A stretch of 64,000 nt of DNA from Escherichia coli (GCF_003018235.1 NZ_CP027437.1), one strand, 5' to 3'; counted from the first letter of the stretch, positions 42,448 to 53,164 are shown. A program made the numbers and translations. The notes: generated by a model not told the origin, from the letters alone.

Positions 42448-43925
42448 TTACGCATTCGACCAGCTCTGGATCGAATCCGCATTCCCCAATTCCCCATGCA
42501 TCACTTCATACGATTTTTTCAGGATTACATCAGTATGTTTGGTTAACTCCTTGAAAATGCTTTTATTCATCGCGTCGTAGCGTTTGGCACTGTTCTCAAC
42601 AGGCATAAAGATATCTTTCACGCGAACCATTTTGTCGACAGCCGTTGCGTAATCCGGGTATAGCCCCAGACCTACCGCCGTATTAATCGCTGCCCCCAGA
42701 CTTGCACAACCATTAATGGCGTTACGGCGTGCCGGAAGGTTGAACACGTCGGCAAAAATCTGCATAAACAGATCGCTGTTCGAACCGCCGCCAGTAATGA
42801 TCACATGCTTTGCAAAGTGATTCATTTCATTACACATATTGTCGTAATTGTTCTTCAGCGTCAGGCCACGCTTTCCAGTATCGAACGATATATCCATGCG
42901 TAATCCATGCTGGAATCAAAGCCAATCATAATCCCGCGTTTGTACGGTTCCCACGGATTGGTCAGCCAGTCCAGCACCGTCATCAGACCATTACAGCCTG
43001 GCGGCACACAAGACGCTTTTTTGTTGAGCAAATCTTCCGGTGAAAGATCCTGTGCTTTGGCATCCTGAATTAACGACTCGCCTAACATGTCGCGTAGCCA
43101 GCTCACCGTCCACATGCCTTTGCGAATACCGTAACCTTCATACAGCAAGGTTTGCGGAATAGAAGACATAATCGGCCAGTACGCTACCGGATCTTTCGGT
43201 AGTAATTTGCCGTTCATCATCAACGCGATGTAAGTGCCAAGAGAAATTACCGCAGTTTCATCATCCAGTAACCCGGCTCCCAGTGCTTCTACCGGTTTAT
43301 CACTGGTGGTACAAACAACCGGCAGCCCAGCCGGGAAATGTGTCGCCAGCGCGGCTTGAGGAGTGATATGCCCAAGAACAGTGCCCGGCATTTGCACATC
43401 AAACAGCATATGACGGGGGATATTAAACTTCTCCATGACTGCGGCATCTTCACTCCATGCCCAGGTCTTATAATCCACCGGCCACTGACCAAAATAGTTG
43501 GCGATATTGTCTTTAAACTCGCCGGTTAAGCGATGCGTCAGATAACCTGAAAAAGAGGTGACATATGCCACGTCAGGATTCGTATGTTCGTAAGGGCGTG
43601 TAACGCGTGCATCCTGCCAGCTAATCAACGGCGCAGCTGGCGTGCCATCGGCTTTCAATAACGCACGGCAGCAACGGATGGATCCCAGACCAATACCGAC
43701 AATATCTTCTTTATTCCCGGCAAACTGACTCATCAAATCGTGACCGGCAAAACATAATGATGCCCATAAATCGTCGTCAGGATGTTCTGCGGTATCGGCA
43801 TCTGGCGTGTGCATCGGCTGCAATAAGCCTTTGCCTTCGCAAACCACATTACCTTCCAGATCATACATCACCACTTTTGTGCTCTGACTTCCGCCATCAA
43901 TCCCTATGATGTATTTTTTCGACAT
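42448..43925 (-). pseudogene. ygcE: FGGY-family sugar kinase split by an apparent frameshift
   Basis: N-terminal 354 codons (42861..43925) and C-terminal 149-codon ORF (42448..42897) are in different frames. The N-frame ends ...AWIYRSILESVA-stop and the other frame continues ...LTLKNNYDNMCNE...ITGGGSNSDLF, both matching conserved FGGY kinase regions, so the switch lies near 42861-42867 (GGCC run). Confidence 0.7.
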
Positions 43926-43951
43926 GATTTTTCTCCTGTAATTTTCTGGAC

Positions 43952-45229
43952 TTACTTGCTGCTAGCCATAGCAGGGGCGCTATCAGCAGTACGAATTTTT
44001 TGGAACAGCAAAAAGGTAAAGACGATCACCATGGCAAGCGCCGCCATGCCCATCAGCCACATATTGCGGTAGGCTTCTGCAGCGGGCAGGGTGTCTTGCC
44101 AGTAGCCGATAATCGGGTAAACGAAGACATCCGGCAGGAATCCAATCACCGAACAAATACCTACCGTGGTGCCCATAATGTAAGACGGTGTTCTCGCTTC
44201 GCCAGGGCAGGCCCAGTACAGCCCGCGTGAGGCGTAACAGGTGAATCCCAGCAGTAAAATCAGGCCAATCCCCATCGCGACCGATTGCGGGTTAGAGTTC
44301 GTGACGAGCAGGGCAGTTAACGCCAGCAAGCCGAGTACGGAAAGGATTTGGATCACGCGGGTAGGGGATTTCACTTTGCTGTAAGTGGTGATAATGCCGC
44401 CAAGCGGACCGCACAGTGCGCGGAAGATTTTGTTGATCACAATCCCCATGTAGCTCGCCGCCACCAGCGACATACCGTACATTTCGGTCAGATAGTTGGT
44501 GGAGTAACTCAGAATGGCGTAGATGGTGAAGACACCAAAAATCACCATGCTGCAATACCAGGTGGTGCTGATGCGCAAAACGGCCAGGATGTCGCTAAGC
44601 TGGAATGACTGTTTTTCTTCGTTATTGGTATTGCGTAGGTTGTTGTTATCGCTAACAAAAAACCAACACAAAATGCCCAGCAGAATGTAAACCACACTAT
44701 AGATAATAATGACCGTTTTCAGGCTGGCGCTGTCATCCGGTGCAAAGCGAGAAAAGACCCACATGGTAAACACCGCCAGCGACATTACACCGACGCCGCG
44801 CAGCCCTTCCATCCAGCCCATAATTTTCCCTTGCTCGCTATGATCGCCCAGCAACGATGCGGCTTTAATCGACACCGACCACAGCATTAAAATCGTCGTT
44901 ATCGCAAAGGCGACCTGAATACAGAGCATTACCCACAGCGGTGGATATGTTGCCATTAACAGACCCAGTAATCCGGTAATGATCATCGCGGAAGTAATCA
45001 TTTTGCGGTGTGAAAATTTATCGGCAATAACGCCGCTGGGGGCATAAAGAATAATAGCCGCAATACCAAAGGTACTCATTATTAAACCTATCTCGGTATT
45101 GCTGAATCCCATAAATTTCGCCATGGGAATTTGATAAATATAACGTAAATAAGCCAGGTCGAAACTAACGCCGCCGCTAAAACTAATTATCGCGAGGGTT
45201 ATCCAACGGCGATATGAGTTGTGTTGCAT
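43952..45229 (-). CDS. yqcE: MFS transporter
   Basis: 425-aa polytopic membrane ORF in the same orientation as ygcE. Confidence 0.85.
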   Translation of the reverse strand: MQHNSYRRWITLAIISFSGGVSFDLAYLRYIYQIPMAKFMGFSNTEIGLIMSTFGIAAIILYAPSGVIADKFSHRKMITSAMIITGLLGLLMATYPPLWVMLCIQVAFAITTILMLWSVSIKAASLLGDHSEQGKIMGWMEGLRGVGVMSLAVFTMWVFSRFAPDDSASLKTVIIIYSVVYILLGILCWFFVSDNNNLRNTNNEEKQSFQLSDILAVLRISTTWYCSMVIFGVFTIYAILSYSTNYLTEMYGMSLVAASYMGIVINKIFRALCGPLGGIITTYSKVKSPTRVIQILSVLGLLALTALLVTNSNPQSVAMGIGLILLLGFTCYASRGLYWACPGEARTPSYIMGTTVGICSVIGFLPDVFVYPIIGYWQDTLPAAEAYRNMWLMGMAALAMVIVFTFLLFQKIRTADSAPAMASSK

Positions 45230-45547
45230 ATCGTATTCCCATTTGTAATAGACAAAAAAAAGAGAAAAGTAAGCCGCCCTTTCAGGTGGATTACTTTTCT
45301 CAGGTCTCTAGTAATTGCAATAAGAAATAACATGGAAAGTAGTGGTGTTGTGTGAGAGTAATCACGCTTCTGCTTTTTAAAATTATTTGACAATTCGAAT
45401 ATCACACTGTGATTACGATCACATTAGCGATTATGCCCTTATGATAAAAATTATCTCCAGTTACCAGAGATAATGAGAAAGGTAACTTCCCTCTCGCGGG
45501 GGAAGTTACCTTTCTTTTTTTTTGCCTTACGGAAATTGGAGCTAACT

Positions 45548-46333
45548 ATGTCAATCGAATCTCTCAATGCGTTCTCAATGGATTTTTTCTCCCTGAAAGG
45601 TAAAACCGCAATTGTTACCGGCGGGAATAGCGGTTTAGGCCAGGCATTTGCCATGGCGCTGGCCAAAGCAGGCGCAAATATCTTTATTCCAAGCTTCGTT
45701 AAAGATAACGGTGAAACAAAGGAAATGATTGAAAAACAGGGTGTTGAGGTGGACTTCATGCAGGTGGATATCACCGCAGAAGGCGCGCCGCAGAAGATAA
45801 TCGCCGCCTGTTGCGAACGTTTCGGTACCGTCGATATTCTGATTAACAATGCCGGTATTTGTAAGCTGAATAAGGTGCTGGACTTCGGTCGTGCCGACTG
45901 GGACCCGATGATTGATGTGAACCTGACCGCCGCATTCGAGTTAAGCTATGAAGCTGCAAAAATTATGATCCCGCAGAAAAGCGGTAAAATCATTAATATC
46001 TGTTCATTATTCTCTTACTTAGGTGGACAATGGTCACCTGCATATTCTGCCACTAAACATGCTCTTGCCGGGTTCACCAAAGCTTATTGTGATGAACTAG
46101 GTCAATATAATATTCAGGTAAATGGTATTGCTCCGGGATATTACGCTACCGATATCACTCTGGCGACCCGTAGTAATCCAGAAACTAACCAGCGCGTTCT
46201 TGATCATATTCCGGCAAACCGTTGGGGCGATACTCAGGATTTAATGGGCGCAGCCGTATTCCTCGCAAGTCCGGCATCGAATTATGTCAACGGACATTTA
46301 TTAGTGGTTGATGGCGGTTATTTAGTGCGCTAA
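45548..46333 (+). CDS. ygcW: Short-chain dehydrogenase/reductase (SDR)
   Basis: Start placed at MSIESLN... (261 aa); Rossmann motif TGGNSGLG and catalytic YxxxK (YSATK). Confidence 0.85.
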   Translation: MSIESLNAFSMDFFSLKGKTAIVTGGNSGLGQAFAMALAKAGANIFIPSFVKDNGETKEMIEKQGVEVDFMQVDITAEGAPQKIIAACCERFGTVDILINNAGICKLNKVLDFGRADWDPMIDVNLTAAFELSYEAAKIMIPQKSGKIINICSLFSYLGGQWSPAYSATKHALAGFTKAYCDELGQYNIQVNGIAPGYYATDITLATRSNPETNQRVLDHIPANRWGDTQDLMGAAVFLASPASNYVNGHLLVVDGGYLVR

Positions 46334-46402
46334 TCCATAACGGTGGTTTCTGTTTTCTCTTATTAATGATTATTCCATTTTTATTATCAGGAAGGAATTA
46401 CT

Positions 46403-47857
46403 ATGTCTTTATCTCGCGCAGCGATTGTCGACCAGCTAAAGGAAATTGTTGGTGCAGATCGCGTAATTACCGATGAAACAGTATTAAAGAAGAACAGTAT
46501 TGACCGTTTTCGCAAATTTCCGGATATTCATGGCATTTATACTTTGCCGATTCCGGCAGCGGTCGTAAAACTCGGTTCCACAGAACAAGTATCCCGTGTG
46601 CTGAATTTTATGAATGCGCACAAAATTAACGGTGTGCCGCGTACCGGTGCTTCCGCTACCGAAGGTGGGCTGGAAACCGTTGTGGAAAACTCGGTGGTGC
46701 TCGACGGCTCTGCCATGAATCAAATCATTAATATTGATATTGAGAATATGCAGGCCACGGCGCAATGCGGAGTTCCGCTGGAAGTGCTGGAAAACGCGTT
46801 GCGTGAAAAAGGTTACACCACGGGGCATTCTCCGCAGTCAAAGCCGCTGGCGCAGATGGGCGGCCTGGTAGCAACCCGCAGTATCGGGCAGTTCTCCACA
46901 CTCTACGGCGCAATCGAAGATATGGTCGTTGGTCTGGAAGCAGTATTGGCTGATGGCACCGTAACACGCATTAAAAACGTACCACGCCGCGCGGCAGGCC
47001 CGGACATTCGTCACATCATCATCGGCAACGAAGGTGCATTGTGCTATATCACTGAAGTAACTGTGAAAATCTTTAAGTTCACCCCGGAAAACAACCTCTT
47101 CTACGGCTATATCCTGGAAGACATGAAAACCGGCTTCAACATCCTGCGTGAAATCATGGTGGAAGGGTATCGTCCGTCGATCGCTCGTTTGTATGACGCT
47201 GAAGATGGCACCCAACACTTCACCCATTTTGCTGACGGAAAATGCGTGCTGATCTTTATGGCTGAAGGTAACCCTCGCATTGCGAAGGCGACGGGCGAAG
47301 GGATTGCTGAAATCGTGGCACGTTACCCGCAATGCCAGCGAGTGGACAGCAAGCTGATCGAAACCTGGTTTAACAACCTGAACTGGGGACCGGATAAAGT
47401 GGCCGCTGAACGTGTGCAGATCCTCAAAACCGGCAACATGGGCTTTACCACCGAAGTGTCCGGCTGCTGGAGCTGCATCCACGAAATCTACGAAAGCGTT
47501 ATTAACCGTATTCGTACCGAGTTCCCGCACGCCGACGACATCACCATGCTGGGCGGTCACTCCTCTCACAGCTACCAGAACGGCACCAACATGTACTTCG
47601 TTTACGACTACAACGTTGTTGACTGTAAGCCGGAAGAGGAAATCGACAAGTACCACAATCCGCTCAACAAAATCATCTGCGAAGAAACCATTCGCCTCGG
47701 CGGTTCGATGGTGCACCACCACGGTATTGGTAAACATCGCGTTCACTGGAGCAAACTGGAACACGGCAGCGCGTGGACGTTGCTGGAAGGTCTGAAAAAA
47801 CAGTTCGATCCTAACGGCATTATGAATACGGGTACTATCTATCCGATTGAAAAATAA
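46403..47857 (+). CDS. ygcU: FAD-linked oxidase (FAD-binding PCMH-type domain)
   Basis: 484-aa ORF resembling glycolate oxidase GlcD / alkyl-DHAP synthase-type flavoproteins. Confidence 0.88.
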   Translation: MSLSRAAIVDQLKEIVGADRVITDETVLKKNSIDRFRKFPDIHGIYTLPIPAAVVKLGSTEQVSRVLNFMNAHKINGVPRTGASATEGGLETVVENSVVLDGSAMNQIINIDIENMQATAQCGVPLEVLENALREKGYTTGHSPQSKPLAQMGGLVATRSIGQFSTLYGAIEDMVVGLEAVLADGTVTRIKNVPRRAAGPDIRHIIIGNEGALCYITEVTVKIFKFTPENNLFYGYILEDMKTGFNILREIMVEGYRPSIARLYDAEDGTQHFTHFADGKCVLIFMAEGNPRIAKATGEGIAEIVARYPQCQRVDSKLIETWFNNLNWGPDKVAAERVQILKTGNMGFTTEVSGCWSCIHEIYESVINRIRTEFPHADDITMLGGHSSHSYQNGTNMYFVYDYNVVDCKPEEEIDKYHNPLNKIICEETIRLGGSMVHHHGIGKHRVHWSKLEHGSAWTLLEGLKKQFDPNGIMNTGTIYPIEK

Positions 47858-47950
47858 TGTGTGAGGCAGCGTTCCGCTATGACGGGGCGTTGCCTTTTCG
47901 GCTTCTCAGGCGAGAAGCCGTTCTTATTACCGGACAATGAAGGGGTAAAG

Positions 47951-49288
47951 ATGAACACTTCACCGGTGCGAATGGATGATTTACCGCTTAACCGTTTTCA
48001 CTGTCGAATTGCTGCGCTCACTTTCGGCGCGCACCTGACCGACGGTTATGTTCTCGGCGTCATTGGTTACGCCATTATTCAGCTTACGCCCGCCATGCAA
48101 CTGACGCCGTTAATGGCGGGAATGATTGGCGGCTCGGCGCTCCTTGGTTTGTTTCTTGGCAGCCTGGTTCTTGGATGGATCTCCGACCATATTGGTCGGC
48201 AAAAAATCTTCACCTTCAGCTTTTTGCTGATTACGCTCGCTTCGTTTTTACAATATTTTGCCACCACGCCAGAGCATCTTATAGGACTACGCATTTTGAT
48301 TGGCATTGGTCTGGGAGGCGATTACTCAGTAGGTCACACTTTGCTGGCTGAATTTTCTCCGCGCCGCCATCGCGGTGTTTTGCTGGGCGCGTTCAGCGTG
48401 GTGTGGACCGTAGGCTATGTGTTAGCAAGTATTGCCGGACATCACTTTATTAGCGAAAGCCCGGAGGCCTGGCGCTGGCTGCTGGCATCGGCAGCTCTGC
48501 CCGCGTTGTTGATTACGTTATTACGCTGGGGAACGCCAGAATCGCCACGCTGGCTACTGCGCCAGGGGCGTTTTGCAGAAGCTCACGCTATCGTGCATCG
48601 CTATTTTGGTCCCCATGTTTTACTGGGCGATGAAGTGGCAACGGCGACCCATAAACACATCAAAACCTTGTTCTCTTCGCGCTACTGGCGGCGCACAGCG
48701 TTTAACAGCGTCTTCTTTGTCTGCCTCGTAATCCCATGGTTTGTGATTTATACCTGGCTGCCAACTATCGCCCAGACTATTGGACTGGAAGATGCGCTGA
48801 CTGCCAGCCTGATGCTTAATGCGTTGTTAATTGTGGGCGCGCTGTTGGGATTAGTTCTGACGCACCTGCTGGCACATCGCAAATTTTTGCTGGGAAGTTT
48901 TTTGCTGCTGGCGGCAACGCTGGTCGTGATGGCCTGTTTGCCTTCCGGCAGTTCATTAACGCTGCTGCTTTTTGTTCTCTTCAGCACCACCATTTCGGCA
49001 GTCAGTAATCTGGTGGGCATTTTGCCTGCGGAAAGTTTTCCTACTGACATTCGCTCGCTGGGCGTCGGTTTTGCCACCGCCATGAGTCGACTTGGCGCGG
49101 CGGTAAGTACTGGCCTGCTGCCGTGGGTGCTGGCGCAGTGGGGAATGCAAGTCACCTTATTGCTCCTGGCGGCAGTGTTGTTGGTTGGTTTTGTTGTGAC
49201 CTGGCTATGGGCACCAGAAACCAAAGCACTCCCGCTGGTGGCGGCGGGAAATGTAGGAGGTGCGAATGAACATTCTGTTAGCGTTTAA
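47951..49288 (+). CDS. ygcS: MFS transporter (sugar porter-like)
   Basis: Start placed at MNTSPVRMDD... (445 aa); 12-TM profile. Confidence 0.85.
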   Translation: MNTSPVRMDDLPLNRFHCRIAALTFGAHLTDGYVLGVIGYAIIQLTPAMQLTPLMAGMIGGSALLGLFLGSLVLGWISDHIGRQKIFTFSFLLITLASFLQYFATTPEHLIGLRILIGIGLGGDYSVGHTLLAEFSPRRHRGVLLGAFSVVWTVGYVLASIAGHHFISESPEAWRWLLASAALPALLITLLRWGTPESPRWLLRQGRFAEAHAIVHRYFGPHVLLGDEVATATHKHIKTLFSSRYWRRTAFNSVFFVCLVIPWFVIYTWLPTIAQTIGLEDALTASLMLNALLIVGALLGLVLTHLLAHRKFLLGSFLLLAATLVVMACLPSGSSLTLLLFVLFSTTISAVSNLVGILPAESFPTDIRSLGVGFATAMSRLGAAVSTGLLPWVLAQWGMQVTLLLLAAVLLVGFVVTWLWAPETKALPLVAAGNVGGANEHSVSV

Positions 49289-50045
49289 AGCCGAACCGGA
49301 TGCCGGAATGCTGGCGGAAAAAGAGTGGCAGGCGGCGGCTCAGGGTAATAGCGGACCGGATGTTTCGCTACTGCGAAGTTTACTCGGTGCTGATGAACAG
49401 GCTGCCGCCGCGCTGCTGTTGGCGCAGAGAAAAAACGGTACGTCGATGTCTTTAACCGCGTTGAGCATGGGGGATGAACGGGCGTTGCACTGGCTGCGCT
49501 ATCTCATGGCTCTTGGGTTTGAGGAAGCTGTATTGCTGGAGACGGCGGCAGATCTGCGCTTTGCGCCGGAATTTGTCGCTCGCCATATTGCCGAATGGCA
49601 GCGTCAGAATCCGCTGGATCTGATAATTACCGGCTGCCAAAGCAGCGAAGGGCAGAATGGGCAAACGCCATTTTTGCTGGCGGAAATGCTGGGCTGGCCC
49701 TGCTTCACCCAGGTGGAGCGTTTCACTCTCGACGCGCCGTTTATCACCCTCGAACAGCGTACTGAACATGGGCTGCGCTGTTGCCGGGTTCGCTTGCCTG
49801 CGGTGATTGCCGTGCGTCAGTGCGGTGAAGTGGCCTTGCCAGTACCGGGAATGCGTCAGCGAATGGCGGCGGGGAAAGCAGAAATTATCCGTAAAACTGT
49901 TGCTGCCGAATCGCCAGCGATGCTGTGTCTGCAACTGGCAAGAGCAGAGCAACGACGCGGAGCGACGCTGATTGATGGGCAAACGGTAGCAGAAAAAGCG
50001 CAAAAGCTATGGCAGGACTATTTACGCCAAAGGATGCAGCCATGA
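49266..50045 (+). CDS. ygcR: Electron transfer flavoprotein beta-subunit-like (FixA-like)
   Basis: About 259 aa; ETF beta-like sequence; the 3' end overlaps the ygcQ start. Confidence 0.85.
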   Translation: MNILLAFKAEPDAGMLAEKEWQAAAQGNSGPDVSLLRSLLGADEQAAAALLLAQRKNGTSMSLTALSMGDERALHWLRYLMALGFEEAVLLETAADLRFAPEFVARHIAEWQRQNPLDLIITGCQSSEGQNGQTPFLLAEMLGWPCFTQVERFTLDAPFITLEQRTEHGLRCCRVRLPAVIAVRQCGEVALPVPGMRQRMAAGKAEIIRKTVAAESPAMLCLQLARAEQRRGATLIDGQTVAEKAQKLWQDYLRQRMQP

Positions 50046-50902
50046 ATATCGCAATTGTGACAATAAATCAGGAGAATGCCGCAATAGTGAGCTGGCTGGC
50101 AGAACAGGATTTCAGCGGTTGTACCCTGGCACACTGGCAGATTGAACCTCAGCCCGCTGTGGCGGAACAGGTACTGGATGCGCTGGTGGAACAGTGGCAG
50201 CGAACGCCTGCGGACGTTGTTATCTTTCCGCCGGGAACGTTTGGCGATGAACTGTCGACCCGGCTGGCCTGGCGTTTACATGGTGCAAGCATCTGCCAGG
50301 TGACTTCGTTAGATATTCCAACCGTAAGCGTGCGCAAATCCCACTGGGGAAATGCGCTAACGGCGACGCTGCAAACAGAAAAACGCCCGCTATGCCTTTC
50401 GCTGGCACGTCAGGCGGGAGCAGATAAAAACGCCACGTTGCCCTCTGGTATGCAGCAACTGAACATTGTCCCAGGTGCGCTTCCCGACTGGCTGGTTAGC
50501 ATAGAAAACCTGAAAAATGTTACCCGCGACCCATTAGCTGAAGCCAGACGGGTGCTGGTGGTGGGGCAGGGCGGAGAGGCAGATAACCAGGAAATCGCTA
50601 TGCTGGTAGAAAAGCTGGGAGCCGAAGTGGGCTACAGTCGGGCGCGAGTGATGAACGGTGGCGTTGATGCCGAAAAAGTGATTGGTATTTCCGGACATTT
50701 GCTGGCACCTGAGGTGTGTATTGTTGTTGGCGCTTCCGGCGCAGCAGCGTTAATGGCGGGCGTACGCAATAGCAAGTTTGTGGTGGCGATTAATCATGAC
50801 GCCAGTGCAGCGGTATTTTCACAGGCAGATGTTGGCGTGGTTGATGACTGGAAAGTGGTGCTGGAGGCACTGGTGACAAACATTCACGCAGATTGCCAAT
50901 AA
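50042..50902 (+). CDS. ygcQ: Electron transfer flavoprotein alpha-subunit-like (FixB-like)
   Basis: Start placed at MNIAIVTINQ... (286 aa); ETF alpha C-terminal FAD-binding region. Confidence 0.85.
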   Translation: MNIAIVTINQENAAIVSWLAEQDFSGCTLAHWQIEPQPAVAEQVLDALVEQWQRTPADVVIFPPGTFGDELSTRLAWRLHGASICQVTSLDIPTVSVRKSHWGNALTATLQTEKRPLCLSLARQAGADKNATLPSGMQQLNIVPGALPDWLVSIENLKNVTRDPLAEARRVLVVGQGGEADNQEIAMLVEKLGAEVGYSRARVMNGGVDAEKVIGISGHLLAPEVCIVVGASGAAALMAGVRNSKFVVAINHDASAAVFSQADVGVVDDWKVVLEALVTNIHADCQ

Positions 50903-50950
50903 CGTGCAGCCGGATGATCCTGCCTACGGTTCTGGGCTGGGGACTTGTAA

Positions 50951-50983
50951 GCCTGATAAGACGCGTCAAGCGTCGCATCAGGC
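50951..50983. repeat. REP element (inside a small BIME-like cluster spanning about 50903-51020)
   Basis: GCCTGATAAGACGCGTCAAGCGTCGCATCAGGC palindrome between convergent ygcQ and ygcP; flanking GCCGGATG / GGATGTGGCGTGCAGCC motifs are also REP-like. Confidence 0.6.
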
Positions 50984-51049
50984 GCTGAATGTCGGATGTG
51001 GCGTGCAGCCTACAAATCACACCAAATTCAACTTGTTACGATTATCCCG

Positions 51050-51625
51050 TCAAAGCAATTTTTTCGCTAACGTCCAGACCCCGGTATTCGTGGTGGAAAG
51101 CGCCACGACACCTGCGTTAATCGCATTACGCGCATCTTCTTCATCGCACACCAGCCCGCCAGCAATCAGCGGTTGGCGGATTTTCTCCGTTACCCAGCCC
51201 AGCACTTTGGGCATACAGCCAGGCAGGATCTCAATACAATCCGGATTCGATTGCGCAACTTGCTTATCAATGTTGTGAAACGAAATCGAATCAACAATAA
51301 ACAGGCGATGAATACAGAAAAAACCTTCCGCTCTTGCCGCTTTCAGCATTGAGGCTTTGGTACTGATAATGCCGTCCGCCTCGGTCACCAGTTTCAGAAA
51401 CTGAATCACCACTTCTTTGTTCGATGCGCCTTCCAGCAAATCAACATGAATAAAGGCATATTTTCCGGCGTGTTTAATCTTTTTCACGATTTGACTAATG
51501 GTGCAGATATTGCCGTACAACACGGAAATAAACTGGCATTCAGAATCGATTGCCAGTTGCAGGCTGGCATTATCTTTAACGGCAGCAATCACCGGATTCT
51601 GGCGGAGCAGGTGTAAGAGGGGCAT
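51050..51625 (-). CDS. ygcP: GlpP-like glycerol-3-phosphate-responsive antiterminator family protein
   Basis: 191-aa ORF of the GlpP family. Confidence 0.85.
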   Translation of the reverse strand: MPLLHLLRQNPVIAAVKDNASLQLAIDSECQFISVLYGNICTISQIVKKIKHAGKYAFIHVDLLEGASNKEVVIQFLKLVTEADGIISTKASMLKAARAEGFFCIHRLFIVDSISFHNIDKQVAQSNPDCIEILPGCMPKVLGWVTEKIRQPLIAGGLVCDEEDARNAINAGVVALSTTNTGVWTLAKKLL

Positions 51626-51641
51626 AAATTATCCTTATTAT

Positions 51642-51902
51642 TTATCCAAAGCGGTAGGTGATGCCGAATCCGGAAGGCGGATAGCGCCACTGTTGTAGTG
51701 TTGATTCGTCACACAGCAAACGGCAGGTGCCACACTCCAGGCAGCCGCGATAATCAACGCGTAAGTCACCTTCCGGTGTGAGCGAAAAAAGACCTGCCGG
51801 ACAGGCGTTAATCAACCGTTGTACCATCTGACGCTCAACGGAGTCAGCCGGAACAATGTGCGGCGCATCGGCAACGCGCCAGAGATTACGGGCTACAGAC
51901 AT
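51642..51902 (-). CDS. ygcO: Ferredoxin-like protein (FixX-like)
   Basis: Start placed at MSVARNLWRV... (86 aa); Cys cluster CLECGTCRLLC. Confidence 0.8.
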   Translation of the reverse strand: MSVARNLWRVADAPHIVPADSVERQMVQRLINACPAGLFSLTPEGDLRVDYRGCLECGTCRLLCDESTLQQWRYPPSGFGITYRFG

Positions 51903-53164
51903 CGCAGACTCCTGATAACATCGCCCGCCAGATGCCACAGGCCGTGACGACGTAAATGACGCCAGAATAACTGGCGCAGCGATGGAACAGGTTTATCACC
52001 CTGATCCCATAAATCGCGGGAAATATCCTGCATTAACGCAGGCCACGCACGGTACCATCCAGGGCGTTGCAAAAGCGCCGGAACATGCTGATAACGTTGT
52101 AGAACATCCCATAGCAGGCTGCGCTCGACGTTGTGATGATAAAGCGGAAACAGATTTTGCGGCTCGCGGTGCTGGCAGGCGCTTATCAGCGTTTGTGCCG
52201 CCGCCTGTGCGCCAGCCAGCGCCATATCCATACCGCGCACGGAAATTCCGGTATTGACGCAACTGCGCAACGCATCGCCCACCAGCAGCCAGCCGTTACC
52301 GGCGTATTGCACTGGCATACTGTGCAAGCCACCTTCTGGCACCAGATGCGCACCATACTCCAGTGATTCCGTGTTTTTGATAAGCGGGCGCACTGCCGGA
52401 TGCGTTTTAAAGCGAGCCAGCAGCTCGCTTGCCGGAACACGACTTTGCGTAAGGGAAGAGAGCGGGCAAACAATCCCTAACGAGAGCGTTTGTTGATTAG
52501 TATAAAGAAATGCGCCGCCGGGTAAGTCATCACAGATCCTGCCGCTGAACAGCAACGCTGCGCCTTCGTTATTCTCCAGATGAAAACGTTCTTCAATAGC
52601 GGATGTTTCCAGCGACAGCACTTCTTTGATCCCCAACGCCATCGCTTCGCCAGCAGGACGAGTCACTAACCCGTGACGTTCAGCCAGGACGCTGTTGGCA
52701 CCTTCTGCCAGCACCACATAACGGGCGCGGAGAATATCGTCACCACAAATGACACCACACACCCTGCCGTTTTCTTCATACAGCGCATCCACCGTCGCAC
52801 CAGGGATGCATTCGACACCTTCTTTTTCGGCTTCGGCAACCAGCCACGGATCGAACCGTGCACGTAATACACTCCAGGATTCACCGCCGGGCTGTAAGCT
52901 GGAAAACGTCGTTGCGCCATCCGGCGTTAGCAGAGAAAGGCTTTCGTGAGTGATGCGTCGTTCAAGAGGCGCGGTCAGATGAAATTGCGGGAGGAGTTCC
53001 GCGAGTGCATGGGTATATAACCGCCCGCCGGAAAGATTTTTGCTGCCGGGGATTTCAGCGCGTTCCAGTAACAAAACGGATAAACCCGCTCGCGCGCAGT
53101 GTAACGCGCAAGCGGTGCCTGCAATACCGGCACCAATAATAATAATGTCGCAGTCGTCTTCCAT
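51893..53164 (-). CDS. ygcN: FAD-dependent oxidoreductase (ETF-quinone oxidoreductase / FixC-like)
   Basis: Start placed at MEDDCDIIIIGAGIAGTACA... (423 aa) with an N-terminal FAD dinucleotide-binding motif; the 3' end overlaps the ygcO start. Confidence 0.85.
   Translation of the reverse strand: MEDDCDIIIIGAGIAGTACALHCARAGLSVLLLERAEIPGSKNLSGGRLYTHALAELLPQFHLTAPLERRITHESLSLLTPDGATTFSSLQPGGESWSVLRARFDPWLVAEAEKEGVECIPGATVDALYEENGRVCGVICGDDILRARYVVLAEGANSVLAERHGLVTRPAGEAMALGIKEVLSLETSAIEERFHLENNEGAALLFSGRICDDLPGGAFLYTNQQTLSLGIVCPLSSLTQSRVPASELLARFKTHPAVRPLIKNTESLEYGAHLVPEGGLHSMPVQYAGNGWLLVGDALRSCVNTGISVRGMDMALAGAQAAAQTLISACQHREPQNLFPLYHHNVERSLLWDVLQRYQHVPALLQRPGWYRAWPALMQDISRDLWDQGDKPVPSLRQLFWRHLRRHGLWHLAGDVIRSLRCL

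Follow-up and report, generated by a model that had tools for sequence, protein, structure and literature searches.

In Bacillus subtilis, the antiterminator GlpP, acting together with glycerol-3-phosphate, relieves the transcription terminators in the 5' untranslated regions (UTRs) of glpD, glpFK, and glpTQ (PMC9604022). Here we describe a putative counterpart in the ygc genes of Escherichia coli, a ten-gene block that occupies positions 42448-53164 (10,717 bases) of a 64,000-nucleotide stretch of E. coli DNA (GCF_003018235.1, NZ_CP027437.1; hereafter the window, with positions counted from its first letter). We propose that this block is a GlpP-type antitermination system retargeted to a glycerol-derivative pathway built around an enzyme like AGPS, the alkyl-dihydroxyacetone-phosphate (alkyl-DHAP) synthase. 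Taken as a whole, this explanation, in which a two-layer catabolic regulon serves the breakdown of a C1-substituted glycerol, seems to us to have an even chance of being right; its regulatory part appears well supported by comparison of sequences, and its deduced chemistry is held with moderate to low confidence. Like the B. subtilis glp regulon, the ygc system would combine a regulator of the PF04309 family, promoter-proximal terminators on several operons of one pathway, and an FGGY kinase that probably makes the effector. On the other hand, the ygc targets are not glpF, glpK, or glpD, the RNA element has a sequence of its own (AGUUACY...GAGAAARGUAACUUCC), and the system occurs in Gram-negative Enterobacterales, where it is combined with class-II-positioned CRP sites.

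Other described systems resemble parts of the locus. In other terminator/antiterminator switches, a protein such as HutP or TRAP reads short purine-rich repeats, and the ygc proposal shares with them the general design of a ligand-binding regulator that reads repeated motifs of this kind near a terminator, whereas both the protein fold and the RNA motif differ. AGPS, a peroxisomal ether-lipid enzyme that swaps the C1 substituent of a DHAP ester or ether, is the best solved relative of the ygc flavoprotein YgcU by profile and by fold, and the alkyl-DHAP reductase and alkylglycerol kinase of ether-lipid metabolism parallel the short-chain dehydrogenase/reductase (SDR) and the kinase that accompany YgcU. 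The electron-transfer flavoprotein (ETF) genes of the block recall both the Ldh-EtfAB complex (LctBCD) of Acetobacterium woodii and the FixABCX and YdiQRST sets of E. coli. An earlier note on this stretch had read the block as a GlpP-controlled module that oxidizes a polyol or sugar acid and passes the electrons through a FixABCX-type set; the module and the attenuation hold up in our analysis, while polyol oxidation centred on ETF now looks doubtful.

Leader RNAs of the two divergent ygc operons

The same leader element, about 68 nt long, opens both divergent operons of the block, ygcWUSRQ on the plus strand and yqcE-ygcE on the minus strand. The terminator hairpin ahead of ygcW was first seen in a consensus scan, as 19 bp and nine T about 30 nt before the start codon, and a covariance model of the element (R1) found exactly two matches in the 64-kb window, one ahead of each divergent operon. 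Copy 1 (45456-45523, plus strand; 80.9 bits) lies in the ygcW 5' UTR and ends about 25 nt before the ygcW ATG; it comprises the antiterminator strands AGUUACC/GGUAACU, a 15-nt loop (AGAGAUAAUGAGAAA), and a 19-bp terminator stem (45475-45516) followed by U9. Copy 2 (45254-45319, minus strand; 56.1 bits, E 3e-10) lies in the 5' UTR of yqcE-ygcE and comprises the strands AUUACU/AGUAAU, a 14-nt loop (AGAGACCUGAGAAA), and an 11-bp lower terminator stem followed by U8. The earlier note had suggested looking for a leader upstream of ygcW or ygcN, and the first of these positions does hold one, whereas the window scan with R1 found no element before ygcN, nor any before ygcS.

Two mutually exclusive helices are present in an alignment of 36 hand-collected leaders. 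The upstream antiterminator helix, AGUUACY/RGUAACU, has 7 bp, with 99.2% of cells paired and compensatory changes at five of the seven pairs; none of 500 shuffles paired as well, and slid controls were 18-56% paired. Its RGUAACU strand doubles as part of the 5' arm of the terminator, whose lower stem is likewise 99.2% paired and has five compensatory pairs. Columns 10, 30, and 66 of this alignment covary three ways, the signature of a switch. Both helices recur in 62 elements aligned with R1, a model that treats the antiterminator helix as unpaired: that helix is 94.7% paired, with 15 G-C to A-U swaps at a single pair, and the terminator is 96.5% paired. The best-conserved part of the element is the loop of the upstream helix, 14-15 nt long (AGAGAyrAUGAGAAA), which contains two GAGA-like repeats.

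The full ygcW leader folds as the terminator at -34.2 kcal/mol (z -6.35) and the yqcE leader folds at -22.3 kcal/mol (z -4.3), compared to -6.7 kcal/mol (ygcW) and -1.4 kcal/mol (yqcE) for the antiterminator hairpin alone. Since the terminator is far stabler than the lone antiterminator hairpin, we infer that termination is the default state and that read-through needs a trans-acting factor. No Rfam family matched the leader at its gathering score, and the sub-threshold matches were at chance level; one of these, rliE (26 bits against 90), was rejected as the identity of the leader since its alignment covers a generic terminator plus AT-rich sequence.

An extended -10 box of the TGnTAnnnT type, conserved in position, lies directly 5' of the leader elements, and in the ygcW promoter it reads TGaTAAAAA (45442-45450, plus strand). 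Transcript starts were inferred from sequence, with the start taken where the leader element begins. On this basis, a perfect CRP consensus site (TGTGAttacgaTCACA, 45408-45423) is centred about 41.5 bp upstream of the ygcW start (~45457), and a CRP-like site (TGTGAgagtaaTCACg, 45351-45366) is centred about 41.5 bp upstream of the yqcE start. Both sites are class-II-positioned, and the one ahead of ygcW is kept in Enterobacterales leaders. The yqcE/ygcW region is also among the top-ranked Crp predictions of PhyloScan (PMC1794230).

The candidate antiterminator for both leaders is YgcP (51050-51625, minus strand), a GlpP-family protein whose residues 12-184 match the PF04309 (G3P_antiterm) model over its full length (1-173 of 173, E 2e-62). 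Solved GlpP-like proteins match it at E 8e-28 (3kts) and E 1.5e-14 (1vkf), and YgcP orthologues form a distinct subgroup, with 50-61% mutual identity across phyla compared to 34-42% identity to the GlpP of glp operons. We compared 80 loci with YgcU orthologues, drawn from one-genome-per-species contigs, together with three loci found earlier. The element sits upstream of ygcW (22), of yqcE-type genes for major facilitator superfamily (MFS) transporters (11), of BCCT transporter genes (5), and of ygcU (4), as well as upstream of operons for OpuC-like ABC transporters, and it was seen in Proteobacteria, Bacillota, and Actinomycetota. The same hairpin sequence lies ahead of ygcW in the Enterobacterales loci with enough upstream DNA (all but Limnobaculum L036, where the terminator hairpin is kept and the upstream antiterminator strand is missing), in Photobacterium, Halobacillus, Thalassobacillus, and Virgibacillus, and in Geosporobacter, Dethiosulfatibacter, Sporomusa, and Saccharopolyspora.

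Among the 37 loci from outside Enterobacterales, an element of at least 40 bits is present in 16 of the 17 that have ygcP, compared to 2 of the 20 that lack it (Fisher p = 2e-7), and these two (L061 and L075) are short contigs that end beside the cluster. Both element and ygcP are missing in the Desulfobacula group, SAR324, and Alkalihalobacillus, among others, some of which carry sigma-54 activators instead. The GlpP-type attenuation that the earlier note had proposed is therefore borne out by two conserved terminator/antiterminator leaders, ahead of ygcW and yqcE, and by an element that tracks ygcP across phyla. Several Clostridia-type loci carry a further leader copy between ygcE and ygcU (L063 9849-9911, L066 9827-9912, L068 8714-8797, and L061 1741-1801), and the flavoenzyme and ETF genes would therefore be gated a second time in these loci.

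Six GlpP relatives from 50%-identity cluster representatives were looked up, and informative glp-type contexts were found in L085, L088/L090, and L093. Locus L093 carries glpP-glpF-glpK and then a glpD/glpA-like gene, and L085 carries glpP and then a glpA-like operon. R1 matches the glp leaders of these two loci weakly, at 19.8 bits or less. The leaders beside these canonical glpP genes have the hairpin, purine loop, and terminator design of the ygc leaders, with a helix of 6-8 bp, a 14-nt purine loop (GAGAGAUGAGAGUA, AUAGAAGAUGGAGA, GGAGAAAAAGGAGA) that contains two GAGA-like repeats, and a 3' helix strand that is also the 5' arm of a strong terminator. A separate arrangement was seen on one metagenomic contig (L088 3512-5558/L090), where three PF04309 genes lie near a glycerol kinase gene, a glycerol-3-phosphate dehydrogenase gene, a DhaK-like gene, and a gene for an enzyme that utilizes phosphoenolpyruvate. 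In the glpK leader on this contig, UUAGAGAGAU is immediately followed by a hairpin that spans the ribosome-binding site, and some PF04309 members may control translation rather than termination.

Together, these findings give good support to a predicted YgcP-dependent antitermination of both ygc operons. In the mechanism we propose, both divergent promoters, which have CRP sites at about -41.5, would be active solely under catabolite derepression, and each leader would by default fold into a stable terminator, so that transcription halts ahead of yqcE or ygcW. YgcP loaded with a phosphorylated pathway intermediate would then bind the purine loop, with its two GAGA-like repeats, of the weak upstream hairpin. 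The 3' strand of this hairpin is the 5' arm of the terminator, and the stabilized hairpin would block the terminator and permit read-through. The leader element and its tie to a GlpP-family protein in Gram-negative bacteria appear to be undescribed so far.

The conserved enzyme core and its predicted chemistry

Genomic context was compared across 82 loci, as the earlier note had recommended, and the comparison yielded a conserved core and a set of lineage-dependent accessory genes. When the ten ygc proteins of the window were compared to every locus by BLASTP, ygcW, ygcU, and ygcE proved common to nearly all 82. In the 37 non-Enterobacterales loci, ygcU is present in 37, ygcW in 34, ygcE in 32, ygcP in 17, and an ETF-like pair in 26-27, and relatives of ygcN and ygcO are present in none. 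Outside Enterobacterales, copies are 63-82% (ygcW), 65-76% (ygcU), and, where syntenic, 45-60% (ygcE) identical to the window proteins. The conserved core consists of ygcW, ygcU, and ygcE, along with ygcP, and ETF is optional. Two public records have unusually close copies for their labels: the YgcU on a contig of a 'Planctomycetota' metagenome-assembled genome (L005) has 100% identity to that of the window, and the YgcU of a 'Chryseobacterium' assembly (L028) has 89%, in full enterobacterial synteny. Both are probably contamination or mis-binning.

Gene calls were taken from the open reading frame (ORF) listing and from the genes that RefSeq annotates in the closest complete E. coli genome, and they confirm the ten genes and their position between a CRISPR array on one side and queD on the other. 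The families assigned to them in the earlier note agree with NCBIfam and Pfam profile searches, and none of the ten proteins reached the curated cutoff of a named equivalog in the NCBIfam search. Full-text literature searches by gene name returned no functional study of any of the ten genes, in keeping with the earlier view of the block as one functional unit without an assigned substrate; the matches for ygcO were a typo for ycgO, and the match for ygcU was a negative D-serine test.

YgcU (46403-47857, plus strand; 484 aa) belongs to the FAD-linked oxidase family and is GlcD-like by profile, and its nearest relative is alkyl-DHAP synthase. When a profile of YgcU orthologues was compared to solved structures, AGPS matched at E 8.5e-56 and the next family, glycolate oxidase/D-lactate dehydrogenase, at 7e-36. 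The alignment to the AGPS structure 4bby spans both domains (FAD-binding PCMH and cap), and YgcU R262, Y398, and H438-H440 align with Arg419, Tyr578, and the HHH loop 615-617 of AGPS, whose residue identities were read via the mutant entries 4bc7 and 4bca. All 82 YgcU orthologues have the motif HHHG[IV]G, and 81 of them have RLYD. An AlphaFold2 model of YgcU, made from a 12-sequence alignment (mean pLDDT 66.8) and used for fold ranking alone, returned AGPS for all of the top 29 PDB matches in Foldseek. By these matches, YgcU is specifically alkyl-DHAP-synthase-like, with the catalytic Arg, Tyr, and HHH conserved, and not a generic polyol or hydroxy-acid dehydrogenase. Unlike AGPS, to which it is about 26% identical, YgcU lies in a catabolic, CRP-controlled context linked to hydrophilic-solute transporters, and it is ETF-linked in some lineages, whereas AGPS needs no ETF.

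The other two core enzymes belong to broad families. YgcW (45548-46333, plus strand), with 65-82% identity across phyla, is an SDR oxidoreductase near KduD (2-dehydro-3-deoxy-D-gluconate 5-dehydrogenase) that scores 350.1 bits and 275.5 bits on two KduD models, below their equivalog cutoffs of 369 and 338.9. YgcE (42448-43925, minus strand) is an FGGY-family kinase, and the named FGGY kinase that its N-terminal ORF matches best is XylB (84 bits; cutoff 380); the ORF falls short of the cutoffs for GlpK, XylB, LsrK, GntK, AraB, and FucK alike. Among the loci examined, the core has no aldolase, dehydratase, or isomerase as a conserved companion.

Since the regulator family senses glycerol-3-phosphate, and since the cluster has an FGGY kinase and an SDR and no conserved aldolase, isomerase, or dehydratase, we propose a route that starts from a glycerol-type molecule with a substituent on C1. 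YgcE would phosphorylate the free primary hydroxyl to give a glycerol-3-phosphate analogue, which would be the likely effector of YgcP, and YgcW would oxidize C2 with NAD(P)+ to give a C1-substituted dihydroxyacetone phosphate (DHAP). YgcU, through AGPS-like flavin chemistry, would then expel the substituent and leave DHAP or an oxidized equivalent, so that the overall route would amount to ether-lipid head-group assembly in reverse. YqcE and YgcS would import the substrate or related compounds, while YgcRQ (ETF) and YgcNO (FixCX-like) would form an Enterobacterales-specific redox accessory connecting the quinone pool with a flavoenzyme that is probably YgcU.

The transporters offer clues to the substrate. 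YqcE (43952-45229, minus strand), which leads the operon yqcE-ygcE, is an MFS transporter of the anion:cation-symporter type that resembles D-galactonate-type carriers in the profile search, and YgcS (47951-49288, plus strand) is an MFS transporter of the sugar-porter/aromatic-acid symporter type. In loci from outside Enterobacterales, the transporters of the regulon are of the BCCT kind or OpuC-like ABC systems, both quaternary-amine types, and the binding protein is nearest to ergothioneine-, glycine-betaine-, and carnitine/choline-binding proteins, whose aromatic motifs it keeps. Because of these transporter types and binding-protein motifs, a trimethylammonium-like head group is likely in the non-Enterobacterales lineages, and the betaine-type transporters argue against the plain polyol or sugar acid that the earlier note had expected as substrate.

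Several loci carry further genes near the core. In Alkalihalobacillus oceani (L002 612-11443), genes for an OpuAC binding protein and for aspartate-ammonia-lyase-, betaine-aldehyde-dehydrogenase-, and class-III alcohol-dehydrogenase-like proteins lie upstream of BCCT-ygcW-ygcE-ygcU, and neither ygcP nor the leader element is found at this locus; the set could oxidize a released amino-alcohol betaine and eliminate trimethylamine. In Erwinia/Pantoea/Serratia-type loci (L034 1-5402; L039, L045, L048, and L049), ygcS lies in a separate operon with a homologue of formaldehyde-activating enzyme (Fae; 134.9 bits against a cutoff of 118), an aldo-keto reductase like L-glyceraldehyde-3-phosphate reductase, and an aldehyde dehydrogenase, and with a divergent LysR regulator of the GcvA/choline-sulfate type. 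Fae and aldo-keto reductase genes occur again in a SAR324 genome (L050 5033-7390), beside BCCT-ygcW-ygcU-ygcE.

Glyceryl ethers of betaines, such as a betaine-lipid head group, are speculative candidates for the substrate. A wider form of the proposal would make this a multi-phylum pathway in which the ygcW-ygcE-ygcU core cleaves the non-hydrolysable bond that joins a polar head group, in many cases a quaternary ammonium, to glycerol, for example in glyceryl-trimethylhomoserine set free from betaine lipids or in a related glyceryl ether or onium compound. It would run ether-lipid chemistry backwards, by way of the kinase, the alkyl-DHAP-reductase-like SDR, and then AGPS-like release of DHAP, and it would be switched on by a new subclass of GlpP-family riboregulators that sense a phosphorylated intermediate. 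E. coli would then be the first Gram-negative model organism in which GlpP-type antitermination is described. In this full extent we consider the proposal rather unlikely. Our literature searches found no paper on catabolism of the betaine-lipid head group (trimethylhomoserine), and keyword searches that paired FGGY with BCCT, or AGPS with ETF, returned nothing relevant.

Several points weigh against the proposed explanation. AGPS is redox-neutral, so the ETF/FixCX set of E. coli is left unexplained unless YgcU carries out a net oxidation, and YgcU, at 484 aa compared to 658 for AGPS, aligns from about AGPS residue 180 and is thus missing about 170 N-terminal residues. AGPS has a long hydrophobic substrate tunnel for acyl or alkyl chains, and the YgcU model is weak (mean pLDDT 66.8). 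YgcE is no nearer to glycerol kinase than to xylulokinase or autoinducer-2 kinase, and YgcW scores best on models of KduD, which are sugar-acid enzymes. The Enterobacterales transporters are MFS and not betaine-type, and the substrate may differ between lineages. Finally, the likeness to canonical GlpP leaders comes from three leaders in two loci, with R1 scores of at most 19.8 bits.

In the alternative that survives best, the MFS transporters would take up a polyol or sugar acid, which YgcW and YgcU, the latter as an ordinary dehydrogenase, would oxidize and YgcE would phosphorylate, with electrons from YgcU passing via YgcRQ and YgcNO to quinone. The 350 bits of YgcW on the KduD model and the likeness of YqcE to D-galactonate-type carriers would suit such a pathway, as would CRP control, which befits a carbon source. 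Moreover, the YgcU superfamily includes the ETF-using dehydrogenases GlcD and LctD, and in E. coli the ETF genes share an operon with ygcU. However, YgcU has the AGPS-specific Arg, Tyr, and HHH and not the EHG of D-2-hydroxy-acid dehydrogenases, ETF is missing in 10 of the 37 non-Enterobacterales loci and in Erwinia/Pantoea-type loci, and FixCX is confined to Enterobacterales. The same leader governs BCCT and OpuC-like betaine-type transporters in other phyla, and the aldolase, dehydratase, or isomerase of an ordinary sugar-acid route is not conserved with the core. We therefore regard this account as possible but doubtful.

The ETF/Fix genes as a lineage-specific accessory

YgcR (49266-50045, plus strand) is ETF beta-like and YgcQ (50042-50902, plus strand) is ETF alpha-like, both by weak matches: their best NCBIfam scores are 45 bits and 74.5 bits, respectively, against ETF cutoffs of at least 240, and ETFs in the PDB match them at E 1e-12 to 1e-22. 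YgcN (51893-53164, minus strand) is a FixC/YdiS-like FAD-dependent oxidoreductase encoded first in ygcN-ygcO-ygcP, a gene set with no leader element upstream, and YgcO (51642-51902, minus strand) is a FixX-like ferredoxin. YgcN scores 382 bits against a cutoff of 466 (PRK10015) and 365 against 610 (FixC), and YgcO scores 83.9 bits against the FixX cutoff of 166; judged by these profiles, the two are relatives of FixC and FixX and not equivalogs. Reading frames overlap by 23 nt at ygcS/ygcR (49266-49288), by 4 nt at ygcR/ygcQ (50042-50045), and by 10 nt at ygcN/ygcO (51893-51902), which suggests translational coupling within the accessory genes. The gap between ygcU and ygcS contains a 9-bp GC-rich hairpin (47899-47920, plus strand; CGGCUUCUC-AGGC-GAGAAGCCG) with a weak T tail; it could serve as an attenuator within the operon, or as a site of mRNA processing, that sets ygcS-ygcRQ apart from the core enzymes. 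Between the convergent genes ygcQ and ygcP lies an element like a repetitive extragenic palindrome (50950-51033, minus strand), with a sub-threshold match to Rfam naRNA4 (37.7 bits against a gathering score of 59.5).

All ten genes are kept together in the same order in 33 Enterobacterales species. Across these species, the median identity to the window proteins is 93% for YgcW, 91% for YgcU, 89% for YgcP, 87% for YgcE, 87% for YqcE, and 76% for YgcS, compared to 48% for YgcR, 44% for YgcQ, 56% for YgcO, and 60% for YgcN. ETF-like pairs outside Enterobacterales are 26-39% identical to YgcRQ and are followed by a second oxidase in 17 loci, and no ETF genes occur in aerobic Bacillota, Saccharopolyspora, SAR324, or Erwinia/Pantoea-type loci. 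Because of this patchy presence and low identity (44-60% compared to 87-93% for the core), we conclude that the ETF/Fix genes are a lineage-specific, fast-evolving accessory and not the heart of the system; FixCX is absent from every one of the 37 non-Enterobacterales loci.

The second oxidase of the anaerobe loci is nearest to LctD of the lactate dehydrogenase-EtfAB complex and has the EHG motif of D-lactate dehydrogenases, and the gene order EtfB-EtfA-oxidase mirrors lctBCD. Since the anaerobe ETF pair adjoins this LctD-like oxidase, ETF is not demonstrably the partner of YgcU. The E. coli ygc block, on the other hand, has no second oxidase, and its ETF proteins are 27-36% identical to those of the anaerobe loci. 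With FixABCX and YdiQRST of E. coli, the block shares the same four-protein inventory, and YgcN aligns end to end with the FixC/YdiS models and YgcO with FixX; unlike those sets, the ygc set scores below curated cutoffs, is split over two convergent operons, diverges fast, and goes with an AGPS-like enzyme and not an acyl-CoA dehydrogenase. The FAD motif of YgcQ (residues ~231-236) reads SGAAAL, compared to SGAIQH and SGASQH in human and Geobacter ETF alpha and SGAVQF in LctC, and YgcQ is without the Gln-His that contacts FAD in canonical ETFs.

The divided pattern of conservation invites a mosaic, which we judge unlikely, in which an ancient ygcW-ygcU-ygcE-ygcP unit with a transporter was later joined in Enterobacterales by ygcS, ygcRQ, and ygcNO, a graft with a partly separate job (such as FixABCX-like reductive electron donation as in carnitine metabolism, or service to another dehydrogenase). 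Presence, absence, and divergence do differ sharply between the core and the ygcS/ETF/Fix set. Consistent with a graft, ygcS of Erwinia-type loci lacks the leader element and shares its LysR-linked operon with genes like those for Fae, aldo-keto reductase, and aldehyde dehydrogenase, the anaerobe ETF adjoins an LctD-like oxidase, ygcNOP has no leader element, and the FAD motif of YgcQ is deviant. Against it, the ten genes stay together in unchanged order in the 33 Enterobacterales species, and the ygcS, ygcR, and ygcQ frames overlap or abut 3' of ygcU with no second leader, so that they are most simply co-transcribed with the core.

The ygcE lesion and the meaning of the ygc system

The leader could in principle act independently of YgcP, as a small-molecule riboswitch or a constitutive attenuator, with YgcP being an enzyme of the ribulose-phosphate-binding-barrel type; we hold this to be very improbable. 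The PF04309 fold is indeed a TIM-like barrel, RNA binding by YgcP is a prediction, and L061 and L075 have the element without ygcP in the stretch examined. However, the antiterminator, a helix of 6-7 bp with a loop of 14-15 nt, leaves no room for a ligand pocket and lacks the strength to compete by itself, element and ygcP co-occur (p = 2e-7) with both exceptions on short contigs, and the same architecture precedes canonical glp operons beside glpP. In addition, GlpP of B. subtilis is an established antiterminator (PMC9604022). The enzyme role suggested by the barrel fold was dropped as our favoured reading once the co-occurring leader RNA turned up.

In this strain, ygcE is a pseudogene with ORFs at 42861-43925 (354 aa) and 42448-42897 (149 aa). 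The lesion is a 1-nt deletion of G at about 42864, near codon 354 of 492, which confirms the frameshift reported in the earlier note; an intact 492-aa orthologue is found in locus L007, and the other nine ygc genes have their full annotated length. The closest complete E. coli chromosome is 98.8% identical across all 10,717 bases, and its ygcE (L001 4001-5479, E. coli ST2747) has a different lesion, an internal stop that leaves ORFs of 283 and 194 aa. These independent lesions hint that the kinase has been lost repeatedly in this lineage. With its C-terminal quarter cut off by the frameshift, YgcE should have no kinase activity, and if the compound that it makes is the effector of YgcP, both operons would stay terminated in this strain even when the substrate is present. 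The two ygcE disruptions, the lack of any phenotype reported in the literature under the ygc gene names, and the fast divergence of the ETF/Fix genes would fit a cryptic or decaying remnant with no present role in the E. coli lineage, but this is highly unlikely given that the block is found at 80% coverage or more in 5060 of 5426 complete E. coli genomes, that nine of its ten genes are intact here, and that conservation across Enterobacterales is strong for the core proteins, both leaders, and both CRP sites.

As a block without a known role, the ygc genes rank with the largest in E. coli, and they now have two defined leader RNAs, one candidate RNA-binding regulator, and a three-enzyme core with a predicted reaction order and product (DHAP), while the ETF/Fix genes that dominate their annotation are probably peripheral to function. 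If the proposal of retargeted GlpP-type antitermination is true, this mode of control, so far studied in Bacillus, would extend to enteric bacteria, and the RNA architecture that the family recognizes would be defined. We know of no degradation route for glycerol-linked polar head groups, and the ygc pathway could, if confirmed, be a route by which gut, salt-lake, and marine-sediment bacteria reuse these head groups as a pool of carbon and nitrogen.

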